Of a stretch of 64,000 nucleotides of DNA, positions 10,946 to 14,600 are shown one piece after another. The DNA lies in IMG/VR virus record IMGVR_UViG_3300021087_001082, positions 12,820 through 76,819 of that record, one strand, 5' to 3'. Under the pieces are notes generated by a model, which saw nothing but the letters and a program-made list of their open reading frames with translations, ran no database searches and was not told where the DNA came from. The stretch's first letter is position 1. Every line of letters begins with the position of its first letter. Source of the DNA: a virus (Duplodnaviria; Caudoviricetes). The translations under genes were made by a program, and so were the position numbers.

Positions 10946-12188
10946 ACATCTACAGTTCTTAAATCATAGTTCATTATTATTAACTACATCTAAAACTAAA
11001 ATCCTATGTGATCCTTGGTTTAAAGGGACAGCTTTTAGTGATGGGTGGTCATTATTATACGATGAGTCTCATAACATCAATGAGTTAGACTTTGACTATA
11101 TTTGGATGTCACATGAACACCCTGATCACTTTTCAATACCCACATTACGAGAACTGAACAAAAGTTGTACTTTTCTTTTTCAAGAAACAAAAGATAAGAA
11201 AGTAAAAAAGTATCTTGAAGAAAAAGGTCATTTAGTAATAGAGCTTAAGAATAAAGAAGAAACAAAAATTGGTGACTTAAAGATTACATCTATTGTATGT
11301 GATGGCTTTGATTCAAGCCTGTTAGTAAAATATCCTGATGATAAGGTTTTACTAAACATTAATGATGCAATGGTATTAGATGATATAGAAGTTGATAAAG
11401 TTGATTTACTTACATTTCAGTATAGCTATGCAAATTGGGCTGGTAATAAAGGTGATAAAAAAATACCTAAGTATCTTCAGAGTATAATAGATAGTAAGAA
11501 TGATAAGGCAATAGCAAAGTTTAAACCAACTGCTATTATGCCATTTGCGAGTTTTGTATATTTTTCTCATGAAGAAAATTTTTACTGGAATGACAATAAT
11601 TGGATAGATCATGTGTTTAACAAATATTTATTTAATGAATCTTTTCTAATATTCCCTAAACCAGATCAATCAATATCATTAAACAATCTTGAGAAAACAC
11701 ATTATGATCTGTCTGCTTGTGCATTTTGGAAAGACAAATATAAGAATCTAATTATAAAAGATAAAGTTAAGCCACTATCTTTAGATCAAATTGAAGATTG
11801 TTATTTGAAGTTCAATAAAAAACTAAATCAAGAAAATACTATTGATAGTGATCTCTCATTAAATATAAAAATTAATGACCTAGATAAGATTATTAAGGTT
11901 GGATTAGTAGAGACCTCATTTGAAGTAGTTGATGAAGAAGAGACGATTAGTGTCTCATCTGAAACCGCAGGCTTCTTATTTTCTCAATTATTTGCAAGAG
12001 GTACAGTATGTGTTAATTCAAGAGTGTCTTTTAATTATAAAACAGCACACAAATTCTTTTTGTTCTTTTTTATACCTTATGCAAACAATATTGGAAAATA
12101 TTTTAAACAGTTTCCAAAAGATGCATATACATCAATAATGAAAACATCAGTAATGAGTGCAATTAATGGAAGTGATAACCTCGTATGA
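10938..12188 (+). CDS. metallo-beta-lactamase-fold protein (UlaG/CMP-NeuAc hydroxylase-like)
   Basis: NHSS, CDPWF.G.AF, SHEHPDH and PFASF motifs. Confidence 0.8.
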   Translation: MDKHLQFLNHSSLLLTTSKTKILCDPWFKGTAFSDGWSLLYDESHNINELDFDYIWMSHEHPDHFSIPTLRELNKSCTFLFQETKDKKVKKYLEEKGHLVIELKNKEETKIGDLKITSIVCDGFDSSLLVKYPDDKVLLNINDAMVLDDIEVDKVDLLTFQYSYANWAGNKGDKKIPKYLQSIIDSKNDKAIAKFKPTAIMPFASFVYFSHEENFYWNDNNWIDHVFNKYLFNESFLIFPKPDQSISLNNLEKTHYDLSACAFWKDKYKNLIIKDKVKPLSLDQIEDCYLKFNKKLNQENTIDSDLSLNIKINDLDKIIKVGLVETSFEVVDEEETISVSSETAGFLFSQLFARGTVCVNSRVSFNYKTAHKFFLFFFIPYANNIGKYFKQFPKDAYTSIMKTSVMSAINGSDNLV

Positions 12189-12241
12189 AAAAAAAACATA
12201 GACAACTTTATGATTCATGGAAATATAAAAAAGGAGGCTTA

Positions 12242-12679
12242 ATGGAATTTAATAATCCCATTTTTCAGACCCTATTAGGGTTAGTGATTTTTTACATTGG
12301 TTTAAAAATGTTTTCGGGTGGAATGAAAAGCATGGGTAAGTTAGAACACCTTGAAGTCTTTCTTGGAAATCCTTACTATATGTTTATTGGTGGTATTGTG
12401 ATGACTCTTTTGTGGCAATCTTCATCACTCTCTACTACTGCAATTATCGGATTGGTCGCGAGTGGCGCACTTCCTCTCCCCGCAGCAATCGGTGCAGTTC
12501 TTGGAGCTAACATCGGAACGACAGGTACTATATGGTTAGCAGGGATAATGGTTTCTGATGGAATGCCTCAAGGAATAACAAAACAGGTAGCCATGGTCCA
12601 TACAGGAGTCAACCTGTTCATGGCAGTTCTCTTGTTACCATTTGCTCAACATATAGCTAGGTTTATATCAAGATTCTGA
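12242..12679 (+). CDS. half-size Na+/Pi cotransporter family protein
   Basis: QSSS and GANIGTT signatures, hydrophobic; AAGGAGG RBS favours ATG 12242. Confidence 0.85.
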   Translation: MEFNNPIFQTLLGLVIFYIGLKMFSGGMKSMGKLEHLEVFLGNPYYMFIGGIVMTLLWQSSSLSTTAIIGLVASGALPLPAAIGAVLGANIGTTGTIWLAGIMVSDGMPQGITKQVAMVHTGVNLFMAVLLLPFAQHIARFISRF

Positions 12680-12702
12680 TAAATAAATCTTTACATTGGA
12701 AT

Positions 12703-12795
12703 TGGCTCTGGGGGTTGGATTCGAACCAACACGCCCCTCTGCAAAAGGGACAATACGTAAACAACGCATCACGTCTACCGTTTCGTCACCCCAGA
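12703..12795 (-). tRNA. atypical tRNA-Asn(GTT) with long variable arm
   Basis: TCTGGGG/CCCCAGA acceptor, G73, CCA; D arm ACG-AAACGGTAGA-CGT; anticodon arm ATGCG-TTGTTTA-CGTAT; 22-nt variable region; T arm GTTGG-TTCGAAT-CCAAC. Confidence 0.85.
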
Positions 12796-13013
12796 GTCCG
12801 TTCTTTTATAAGATGTCCCATTTGATGCTCTGCAAGCGCATCAAGGTCTGTATATGTTTCGTCGCATTCGAAGCAACTAGCAAATCCATTTTTCTTATAA
12901 AAGTTTTCTTCATCTATCATTTCTCTTGCTTGCCTTTGTAGCTCATTTATCACGTCGTGTATTCCATGTCCACCTGGGTAGATCGGAAATACTTTATTGC
13001 TACTTTTAGGCAT
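12786..13013 (-). CDS. small C2H2 zinc-finger-like protein
   Basis: CFECDETYTDLDALAEHQMGH (CxxC-x12-HxxxH); start overlaps the upstream stop. Confidence 0.65.
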   Translation of the reverse strand: MPKSSNKVFPIYPGGHGIHDVINELQRQAREMIDEENFYKKNGFASCFECDETYTDLDALAEHQMGHLIKERTLG

Positions 13014-13885
13014 TACATAAGTCCTGCTCTTTTCATTCCACTAATAAGTCTCGTCATTCCTATTCCACCTCCAAACCTAGGTCTGAAGTCATGCCCCAGA
13101 AATTCATCAAGTTCTGCTTCTACTCTTTCTTCACCGAATAGATCATACAATAAACTGGCATACCCACCATCTGATATTGTATGGAATTGTTTCCTCATTT
13201 CATCAACATCGGTTGCACGTTCAGCACTACCGATTGTTTCCATGCCACCAATAATAACATCGCATTTATTAGCAAGGCTGGCAGTTTTTTTCACATCTTG
13301 TTGACCAAGTTTCATGTTCCAGAAAGGACTTGTTGATTCCGGAAAATGGGTTAAAAAGAATACATCTCCATATTCTTGATACATTTCTTCTTCATGGCCA
13401 GCATCTAATTCTTCACCAGTATATTTTGCTAATACACTTTGATACATGCCACCCGGAAAATCTAAATCTTTATATGGAGCTCTTCCATGATCACAATGAA
13501 ATCCTAAATGAATTAATAAATCATTTTCCAGTTTTAATAATTCTTCAAAGTCGCCAGGAGCTTCAAATTCAAACATTGGGAAGATTAGTTCATGTCTTCC
13601 TTCTATTGAATTTTGTTCTTGCCTGTAACTTGTGCTAACACAATAACAACCTGGCAGATCAGGTTTAGTTAACAATTCATATTCTAACCACATTTGCCCT
13701 GTTTGTGGTAATGGCCATATTTGACCATTATAATTATAGGTAGCAACTGTAGTGGGATCTTCGCATGCGGCGAGGATTGATAATCTGCTTTGGGTATGTA
13801 CTTCTTGAAAATTACGTGAGGAAAAAAAGGAACGGAGTTGTGAGACTACATTAGTGAAATCGGTTGGATCGATTAAACTAGTTAT
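13013..13885 (-). CDS. class IIb aaRS catalytic-core protein (AsnRS/AsnA-like), no anticodon-binding domain, ATA start
   Basis: Motif 1 (LRSFFSSRNFQEVHT), motif 2 (SYRQE...RH...FPMFEFE), motif 3 (GGGIGMTRL); frame open 64 codons upstream of the tracked ATG, to an ATA behind AAGGAGG. Confidence 0.85.
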   Translation of the reverse strand: MTSLIDPTDFTNVVSQLRSFFSSRNFQEVHTQSRLSILAACEDPTTVATYNYNGQIWPLPQTGQMWLEYELLTKPDLPGCYCVSTSYRQEQNSIEGRHELIFPMFEFEAPGDFEELLKLENDLLIHLGFHCDHGRAPYKDLDFPGGMYQSVLAKYTGEELDAGHEEEMYQEYGDVFFLTHFPESTSPFWNMKLGQQDVKKTASLANKCDVIIGGMETIGSAERATDVDEMRKQFHTISDGGYASLLYDLFGEERVEAELDEFLGHDFRPRFGGGIGMTRLISGMKRAGLM

Positions 13886-13940
13886 AATACCCTCCTTTGA
13901 TAATTAAAATGTTAACCTCCTTTTATTTCACAAATCTTAA

Positions 13941-13948
13941 TATTTATA
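13941..13948 (-). promoter_or_regulatory. T4-type late promoter TATAAATA
   Basis: TATTTATA on the + strand, upstream of the minus-strand aaRS-like operon. Confidence 0.7.
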
Positions 13949-13994
13949 GAATCTCTTTATTCAACAAAATTTCTAAATAATCATAGGAGGAAGT

Positions 13995-14600
13995 ATGGTA
14001 ACATATTCACATTTATCAATGATTGCTTTTGTGATATTAGGTTTATCTATGGTGAGATTAATGATTAACTATAGTTCATTAGTTGCTAAAAATTTTAATG
14101 ATAGTCCAGATGATGATGTTGTGTTTTATTGGCCACATACGGCAATGAGTTTTATAACTTTTTTTACTATTATATTATTTTGGTGGACTTCTTATCCACT
14201 GAGAGATGTGAATTATTTTCCAAACGAAGGATGGAATTTATTTACATTTTTATTATATCTTTCAGTACCATTCTTATTTTTTATGGTTACTGAAGTGATC
14301 GCTCCACAAATTGAAGAACATAGAACGAAGGAAGTTAATTTAAAAGATTATTATTATAATAATCATAAGGTCATATTAGGGTTGGCAGTAATGTTACAAT
14401 GCGTTCTGCTCGCAAATCTTTTTGTATTCTTTAAAGGAGAATTGCTATCATTGAAAGTGATAGGCAGAGTCATATTGATTTGTGTCATGACTCCAATGAT
14501 ATTCAGTATCAATAAAAGATTACATGAAATTGGTATGACAATATTTTTTCTAGGATTCATCTATACCATAATAAAGTATCATATCTATCCAGTGATATAA
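13995..14600 (+). CDS. multi-pass membrane protein
   Basis: About six hydrophobic segments; AGGAGG RBS. Confidence 0.7.
   Translation: MVTYSHLSMIAFVILGLSMVRLMINYSSLVAKNFNDSPDDDVVFYWPHTAMSFITFFTIILFWWTSYPLRDVNYFPNEGWNLFTFLLYLSVPFLFFMVTEVIAPQIEEHRTKEVNLKDYYYNNHKVILGLAVMLQCVLLANLFVFFKGELLSLKVIGRVILICVMTPMIFSINKRLHEIGMTIFFLGFIYTIIKYHIYPVI

Follow-up and report, generated by a model that had tools for sequence, protein, structure and literature searches.

An Asn-type tRNA on a Leu-like body, tied to an AsnRS-like enzyme gene in T4-like marine phages, as a possible carrier tRNA

The window analysed in our study is a 64,000-nt stretch of DNA that forms part of a 76.8-kb viral contig with a G+C content of 34%. 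The presence on this viral contig of genes for a T4-type DNA polymerase, a ribonucleotide reductase, a CobT-like peptidase and a tryptophan halogenase points to a T4-like marine cyanophage-type genome. Nearly all genes of the window are on the plus strand; the minus strand carries an odd tRNA gene together with the gene of an AsnRS-like enzyme directly upstream of it, and the locus consists of the following features:

12703..12795, minus strand: tRNA-Asn(gtt), 93 nt (ARAGORN, Rfam tRNA model, family covariance model, covariation)
12786..13013, minus strand: small ORF, 75 aa from ATG, with a weak C2H2-like tail (translation, Pfam)
13013..13888, minus strand: AsnRS-type class IIb aminoacyl-tRNA-synthetase catalytic core, about 290 aa (Pfam, phrog_29758, AlphaFold model)
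13891..13895, minus strand: GGAGG ribosome-binding-site-like motif, read from the sequence, just upstream of the presumed non-ATG start of the enzyme gene

A tRNA of 93 nt at 12703-12795 had been proposed by a sequence-only reading of this DNA, and it is confirmed here by ARAGORN and by the Rfam model RF00005 (41.6 bits for a gathering score of 29, E 9.7e-8, in a search of positions 12600-12900), with the minus strand, which had not been stated before. An Rfam gathering run on the whole window missed this tRNA through a filter miss and not through a low score, since locally it stands 12 bits above gathering. The acceptor stem has 7 bp, beginning with the pair U1:A72, and is followed by G73 and an encoded CCA; the D stem has 3 bp (ACG/CGU), the anticodon stem 5 bp including one G-U, and the T stem 5 bp with the loop UUCGAAU. 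The anticodon loop reads UUGUUUA, i.e. U33, the anticodon G34 U35 U36, U37 and A38, and the 22-nt variable region forms a 7-bp stem with two G-U pairs. The GTT anticodon, U1:A72, G73 and encoded CCA that the earlier reading had named are thus all legible both in the sequence and in the ARAGORN drawing, and the 3-bp Leu-style D stem, the 22-nt variable stem-loop and the loop with U37 are likewise present. The minimum-free-energy fold is a cloverleaf (-36.1 kcal/mol, z -2.93), in which U32 and A38 are also paired, leaving a 5-nt loop.

The body of this tRNA is supported as tRNA-Leu-like by sequence comparison. On a covariance model built from 37 distinct relatives (hereafter the family), the window tRNA scores 95.1 bits, and outside the family tRNA-Leu genes come closest, reaching 62-64 bits in phage loci and 53-63.5 bits in the record of a 735-kb phage; the best tRNA that belongs neither to the family nor to tRNA-Leu reaches 51 bits. 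A tRNA-Asn of the 735-kb phage that reaches 45 bits on the same model is an ordinary tRNA-Asn. In class II tRNA-Leu genes of related phages the D arm is nearly the same and the variable arm is also long, but they have G1, A73, which is a Leu determinant, and a Leu anticodon where the window tRNA has U1:A72, G73 and GUU, so that its D arm and long arm alone are Leu-like. Six further tRNA genes were found on the viral contig by ARAGORN, among them tRNA-Asn, tRNA-Asp and tRNA-Tyr genes. This second tRNA-Asn (contig positions 1306-1380) is an ordinary bacterial-type one, which shares GUU, U1:A72, G73, an encoded CCA and a canonical T loop with the odd tRNA, but it is 75 nt long, its D stem has 4 bp, its variable loop is short and its anticodon loop CUGUUAA contains A37, in contrast to the 3-bp Leu-like D arm, 22-nt arm and U37 of the odd tRNA. 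The window tRNA therefore has the anticodon and acceptor end of a bacterial tRNA-Asn without its class I body or its A37, the base that can bear t6A, and as the contig also encodes the ordinary form, the odd tRNA is not simply a spare. ARAGORN additionally reports a tRNA-Val with the anticodon AAC at contig positions 3578-3653, outside the window, which begins at contig position 12820; an A34 anticodon is unusual among bacterial and phage tRNA-Val.

The AsnRS-like gene directly upstream, on the same strand and without an anticodon-binding domain, is context that was absent from the earlier reading. Its product matches Pfam tRNA-synt_2 (E 2.4e-18) and phrog_29758 (E 8e-103) and begins at motif 1, the N-terminal OB-fold that serves as anticodon-binding domain being absent. 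Relatives of the enzyme are 288-297 aa long and start, with an ATG, with the residues MT(S/Q)LI at the matching place, from which the window gene probably starts at an ATA or ATT at 13883-13888, after the GGAGG motif; this non-ATG start is the reason why the list of open reading frames held only a 226-aa ATG form. The AlphaFold model of the enzyme (pLDDT 88.2) finds its best PDB fold matches in AsnRS, 1x54 (E 9.6e-19) followed by 9sh8, 2xgt and 8h53, with archaeal and eukaryotic AspRS ranking after them, and the best sequence matches are AsnRS as well. Class II motifs 1-3 are invariant across 31 relatives. In profile alignments, QMWLE and MFEFE, both invariant among the enzyme relatives, stand opposite QLYLE and HVEAE of AsnRS chains, whereas an AspRS chain has QLYKQ and GLDVE at the same two spots; the enzyme agrees with AsnRS and not with AspRS at both of these discriminating places (QLYLE and the E in HVEAE). 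It thus combines class II motifs 1-3 with an AsnRS-type amino-acid pocket signature. The NCBIfam AsnRS model gives 30 bits for a cut-off of 414, and those for EpmA and asparagine synthetase A give 17.8 and 14.2 bits, both far under their cut-offs.

The small ORF separates the enzyme gene from the tRNA and runs into the 5' end of the latter, with an overlap of 10 nt that takes in its stop codon. Its match to Pfam zf-C2H2 (E 0.0019) is below the cut-off. In 19 of 84 loci, a relative of this ORF occupies the same place; the N-terminal half is conserved, and the Cys/His tail is present in some only. On the plus strand, a Na/Pi-cotransporter-like fragment of 164 aa (12185-12679) converges on the tRNA and ends 24 nt away from it; relatives of this fragment lie near the enzyme/tRNA module in 20 loci. 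A promoter and terminator scan of the locus gave nothing above shuffles save the variable arm itself, and no promoter-like site was found between the enzyme gene and the tRNA, which are probably co-transcribed. Parts of the enzyme gene are present in contigs from four marine RNA libraries of four studies, in which contaminating DNA is possible; the same reservation applies to a contig of run X5 covering 12704-12881, from the tRNA into the small ORF, and to one of run X2 covering 12730-12884. The RNA-library contigs leave parts of 12600-14000 uncovered, which carries no meaning, and such contigs are no measure of transcription, RNA ends or charging.

The enzyme/tRNA module is common among viral sequences. 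Of 598 stretches in IMG/VR that fitted the search pattern, 596 code for an enzyme relative; the best 80 were retained. Among 50,697 phage records, relatives occur only in P-SSM7, P-SSM2, P-SSM5 and three huge uncultured phages. Family tRNAs were located by ARAGORN and then by the 37-sequence covariance model. Such a tRNA closely follows the enzyme gene on the same strand in 63 of 84 sources (the window and 83 loci), at a distance of -8 to 230 nt in the loci where ARAGORN detected it. Within the phage part of the enzyme tree, which comprises two clades, 63 of the 65 sources with enough downstream sequence have it. The Prochlorococcus phages P-SSM2 and P-SSM7 both carry the pair, and in the whole P-SSM2 record the tRNA of the pair is the sole match to the family model at E <= 0.001. 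The tRNA is tied to the AsnRS-like enzyme only in T4-like marine phages. No third gene universally kept beside the pair was found in the 84 sources.

The 21 sources in which no family tRNA was found fall into four categories. Four have less than 210 nt of sequence downstream of the enzyme. Fourteen are virus loci that group as a single clade in the enzyme tree; five of them were annotated, and two of these five, L046 and L048, bear giant-virus capsid genes, L046 additionally encoding a capping enzyme. One is the 735-kb phage, whose tRNA-Asn genes are ordinary. The last two, L079 and L082, are inside the phage clades and have no family tRNA despite 3 kb of downstream sequence; a whole-record search of L079 with the family model also gave no match.

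For P-SSM2 (L002), the record NC_006883.2 annotates a tRNA-Asn at 164094-164179, within a CDS; ARAGORN and the family model place it at 162083-162171, directly after a gene named 'tRNA ligase', and the annotated coordinates look stale. A description of the enzyme/tRNA pair was not found in the literature searched, nor was an account of whether Prochlorococcus hosts use AsnRS or the AspRS/GatCAB route. The relevant passages of Sullivan 2010 (PMC3037559) merely list a 'tRNA ligase' gene cluster, in 2 of 16 cyanophage genomes.

The homolog search and covariation analysis that the earlier reading had suggested yielded 47 distinct copies of the tRNA, and covariation backs all five helices. In the 37-sequence alignment, 98.1% of cells pair and both-sided changes occur in 22 of 25 pairs; slid-partner controls pair in 41-55% of cells, and none of 500 shuffles reaches the observed values. 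Together with the 95.1-bit model score, these figures uphold the earlier argument against decay and support, at the level of sequence, an intact tRNA gene that is under selection. U1:A72 is constant in the alignment while every other acceptor pair varies, and the Asn-like acceptor end (U1:A72 and G73) is better conserved than any other part of the tRNA. Since U1:A72 and G73 both belonged to the rule for family membership, their presence in 47 of 47 distinct copies is circular; the independent figure is 37 of 37, from the copies that ARAGORN detected behind the enzyme gene, where no selection rule applied. The anticodon is GUU in 46 of the 47 distinct copies and GUC in one, with G34 and U35 invariant and U36 changed once, and CCA is encoded in 44 of 47. 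The copy with the GUC (Asp) anticodon, L050:3868-3966, retains U1:A72 and G73. The T arm, the elbow bases and the CCA of the family are fully canonical.

A different picture is given by the parts of the tRNA that vary. Positions 32, 33, 37 and 38 of the loop change around a fixed anticodon in the 47 distinct copies: position 33 shows 38 U, 5 C, 3 A and 1 G, and position 37 shows 34 U, 9 G and 4 A, a purine thus being found there in 13 of 47. By comparison, all 21 distinct ordinary tRNAs from the same loci have U33 and A37 (Fisher p 1e-8 for the purine at 37 and 0.048 for U33). The variable region spans 3 to 37 nt, which explains the overall length of 77 to 111 nt; nine of the 47 copies are 77-79 nt long with a variable region of 3-5 nt, and short and long forms adjoin closely related enzymes (L012 and L016 versus L013; L042 versus L044 and L036). 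The unusual U37 singled out by the earlier reading is therefore common in the family, but neither U37 nor the variable arm is fixed.

G73 and the anticodon G34-U35-U36 are determinants for AsnRS and for non-discriminating AspRS. GatCAB, for its part, is described as recognising U1-A72 and not the anticodon (PMC2330236). The conserved set in the family is thus what class IIb synthetases and GatCAB read, and the relaxed set is what the ribosome needs, a pattern that favours a tRNA in which loading as tRNA-Asn is required and good decoding is not. As the anticodon loop departs from the decoder pattern, the earlier suggestion that this RNA acts outside the ribosome stays a live reading, and the sequence data are compatible with a role other than normal decoding. 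With its canonical T arm, elbow and CCA, and with U33 in 38 of 47 copies, the family tRNA may still be used on the ribosome.

Relatives of the enzyme extend well beyond phages. In a genome collection, 414 were found among 491 pattern matches, and the best 80, which were analysed, show 54-61% identity to the window enzyme, except L092 at 81%. These 80 loci belong mostly to Patescibacteria (including complete chromosomes), with the addition of Aureispira, Chitinophagales, Saprospiraceae and some Proteobacteria. The family tRNA is present in five of them, all marine MAG contigs that are probably phage DNA and one of which is L092, and is absent from the other 75. A protein collection holds at least 8000 clusters of enzyme relatives, a number that counts the enzyme and not the pair, because most of the best 80 genome loci are cellular and lack the tRNA; a protein atlas returned only viral clusters of its own. 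The names given to enzyme relatives at NCBI are 'amino acid--tRNA ligase-related protein', 'transposase' and 'hypothetical'.

In bacteria, in giant viruses and in apparently eukaryotic sequences, enzyme relatives are found beside or fused to pyrimidine-synthesis genes, without the family tRNA. The enzyme gene adjoins pyrD in seven loci of Bacteroidota and Proteobacteria and pyrF or a pyrE-pyrF fusion in seven, and 9 of 11 longer relatives consist of a dihydroorotate dehydrogenase fused to the enzyme core, as confirmed by Pfam in 3 of 3 that were rescanned. These fusions (P0244-P0250, P0252 and P0254) have low-complexity, eukaryote-looking sequence. In Patescibacteria, the neighbours of the enzyme gene are a dihydrouridine-synthase gene on one side (19 loci) and dnaX on the other (18 loci). 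Six of the 28 Patescibacteria loci scanned (L114, L118, L132, L133, L146 and L150) have a tRNA-Gln(ttg) downstream of these enzyme and dnaX genes; tRNA-Gln is the other bacterial tRNA with U1:A72. Aspartate carbamoyltransferase is over the cut-off in 2 of 25 enzyme-bearing cellular genomes, compared to 14 of 14 control genomes, and in one Bacteroidota order, of which 81 genomes were sampled, 71 have PyrB, whereas not one of the three that bear the enzyme does (Fisher p 0.0014). PyrD is present in 14 of the 25 genomes; the 11 in which no PyrD was shown are mostly small Patescibacteria and incomplete MAGs, so that its absence from them is not established. On the idea that the enzyme takes the place of dihydroorotase, PyrC exceeds its cut-off in 3 of 25, with many sub-threshold PyrC-like matches in the larger genomes; on the idea that it makes up for an absent AsnRS, AsnRS exceeds its cut-off in 7 of 25, with no match at E <= 1e-40 in 12 of 25. 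GatB is present in 5 of 5 tested. P-SSM2, P-SSM5 and P-SSM7, the cultured phages with the enzyme, also stand alone among the complete isolate genomes of the phage collection in having an orotate phosphoribosyltransferase gene.

Our preferred reading, held tentatively and at a little under an even chance, is that this is an Asn-type carrier tRNA coupled to the AsnRS-like enzyme and not a normal decoder of AAY codons. The structure of the RNA, its pattern of conservation and its linkage to the enzyme are demonstrated here, as are the AsnRS-type fold and the active-site signature that the enzyme displays, whereas the charging of the tRNA, the amino acid and the charging enzyme concerned, and the use to which the AsnRS-like enzyme puts it are inferences. 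Phages would have built a functional Asn-type tRNA on a tRNA-Leu-like body and fixed it as the downstream partner of the enzyme. Its G34-U35-U36 and G73 would be read by AsnRS or by a non-discriminating AspRS, and its U1:A72 by GatCAB, U1:A72 and G73 being also usable by an enzyme that sees the acceptor end alone. The requirements of a decoder (U33, a purine at 37 and an open 7-nt loop) are not maintained, and the variable arm is free to grow or vanish; the tRNA, loaded with asparagine, would serve the adjacent enzyme as a dedicated carrier. Against this stands the occurrence of the enzyme without the tRNA in 75 of the best 80 genome loci, in the 14-locus virus clade and in the 735-kb phage, as well as in the phage loci L079 and L082 with their 3 kb of downstream sequence.

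A more specific form of the carrier reading, which we consider unlikely as it stands, is that of a captive asparagine carrier feeding nucleotide (pyrimidine) synthesis. Dihydroorotate is asparagine with both nitrogens bridged by one carbonyl. Host enzymes reading GUU, G73 and U1:A72 would build asparagine on the tRNA, the altered loop would keep the tRNA off the ribosome, and the AsnRS-like enzyme would take its asparagine and convert it to a dihydroorotate-type ring, after which host PyrD and phage PyrE would complete the route. This scheme draws on the cellular relatives that appear to replace aspartate carbamoyltransferase-dependent synthesis and on the dihydroorotate dehydrogenase fusions; the 11 of 25 genomes with no PyrD shown, and the lack of a clean pattern for PyrC and AsnRS, count against a simple pyrimidine story.

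The pair could also be a private synthetase and its substrate, in which the core enzyme charges the tRNA with Asn through U1:A72 and G73 and the product decodes AAC and AAU for an AT-rich phage, an explanation we regard as improbable but worth keeping in mind. An AsnRS-type fold and signature without an anticodon-binding domain, the invariance of U1:A72 and G73 and near-invariance of GUU, the canonical T arm and CCA, and the tight adjacency of the two genes all fit this idea, and with 12 of 25 enzyme-bearing cellular genomes devoid of an AsnRS-like match at E <= 1e-40 and GatB in all 5 that were tested, some cells would have a deficit that a minimal AsnRS could make good. It is harder to reconcile with the loss of purine 37 in 34 of 47 copies and of U33 in 9 of 47, when 21 of 21 ordinary tRNAs keep both, with the ties of enzyme relatives to pyrimidine genes by fusion, neighbourhood and a distribution complementary to that of PyrB, and with the enzyme's presence in genomes that already have AsnRS (7 of 25). 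Eukaryotic tRNA-Asn is not known to have U1:A72, and the giant-virus relatives would accordingly meet no U1:A72 tRNA-Asn in eukaryotic hosts. That the altered loop evades an anticodon nuclease, as the earlier reading had also offered, is possible, and variation of positions 32, 33, 37 and 38 around a fixed anticodon is what has been proposed for nuclease-resistant phage tRNAs (PMC10264068). The full form of this explanation would make the tRNA a hardened, host-charged spare tRNA-Asn and the enzyme a free-standing metabolic neighbour, linked to it by shared history only, in keeping with an enzyme that works without the tRNA in cells. Three of the four targets of colicin E5 are tRNA-Asn, tRNA-Asp and tRNA-Tyr, and the contig encodes all three. 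Yet its ordinary tRNA-Asn keeps the unaltered loop CUGUUAA, there is no known nuclease for these hosts, the tRNA of the pair is the sole model match in the P-SSM2 record, and chance fails to explain an Asn identity beside an AsnRS-type enzyme in 63 of 65 phage sources, which together leave this explanation a poor candidate.

The remaining alternatives fare worse against the same observations. A tRNA-shaped processing or stabilising element that only marks the 3' end of the enzyme mRNA would account for a position directly downstream of the enzyme gene, with an 8-nt overlap in L033, L034 and L039, for the lack of a promoter-like site between the two genes and for the one RNA-library contig that stops one base before the 3' end of the tRNA, but such an element needs no invariant GUU, U1:A72, G73 and encoded CCA across stems that differ almost everywhere, and we think it very unlikely. 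The earlier proposal of a SerRS substrate, with serine put at Asn codons, took its cue from the long arm and G73, and the window copy, with its class II body, does have G73 and a variable arm of 7 bp. Nine of 47 relatives with a 3-5-nt variable region nevertheless keep the acceptor end, the anticodon and the partner enzyme, arm length differs between close relatives, and the enzyme is AsnRS-like and not SerRS-like; as the long arm is dispensable in the family, SerRS mischarging is unsupported and seems to us highly improbable. A decaying or chance tRNA-like sequence, for which the odd loop alone would speak, is refuted by covariation (22 of 25 pairs have compensatory changes), by the existence of 47 distinct copies and by model scores of 95 bits, and has virtually no chance of being correct.

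Parts of what we propose for the carrier tRNA have precedents. In tRNA-dependent asparagine formation by a non-discriminating AspRS and GatCAB, recognition by GatCAB matches the family-invariant U1:A72 (PMC2330236), but that pathway uses a housekeeping, decoding tRNA-Asn, whereas in the present case an additional AsnRS-like enzyme is linked with a second tRNA, one whose loop is altered. The phage enzyme itself resembles several others. Synthetase paralogues without an anticodon-binding domain include the archaeal AsnRS-like asparagine synthetase, AsnA, EpmA/PoxA and GluQRS, and they share its core-only form. We know of no dedicated tRNA gene for any of these four. The phage enzyme family, by contrast, has its dedicated tRNA and its ties to pyrimidine genes, and at about 290 aa is closest to AsnRS. 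The cell-wall tRNA-Gly of Staphylococcus is a tRNA reserved for non-ribosomal use, and by analogy with such aminoacyl-tRNA donors the family tRNA may act in a similar way, with its decoder features relaxed. Mom of phage Mu is reported to modify DNA with Gly-tRNA (PMC13219725); it draws on the ordinary tRNA-Gly of the host, whereas the family tRNA has a dedicated gene and is without a known acceptor reaction.

The pair offers a way into an uncharacterised enzyme family that apparently stands in for early steps of pyrimidine synthesis in Patescibacteria, Bacteroidota, Proteobacteria, giant viruses and protists. The module is kept in many ocean phages, and the cultured phages P-SSM2 or P-SSM7 on Prochlorococcus NATL1A offer a directly testable system for it. 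If the pyrimidine reading were true, abundant ocean phages would possess a tRNA-linked shortcut into pyrimidine synthesis. If the carrier reading is correct, the tRNA would be a natural case of rebuilding from one identity (a Leu body) to another (Asn ends), and abundant ocean phages would carry a tRNA whose main job is not decoding and which is tied to a synthetase-like enzyme.
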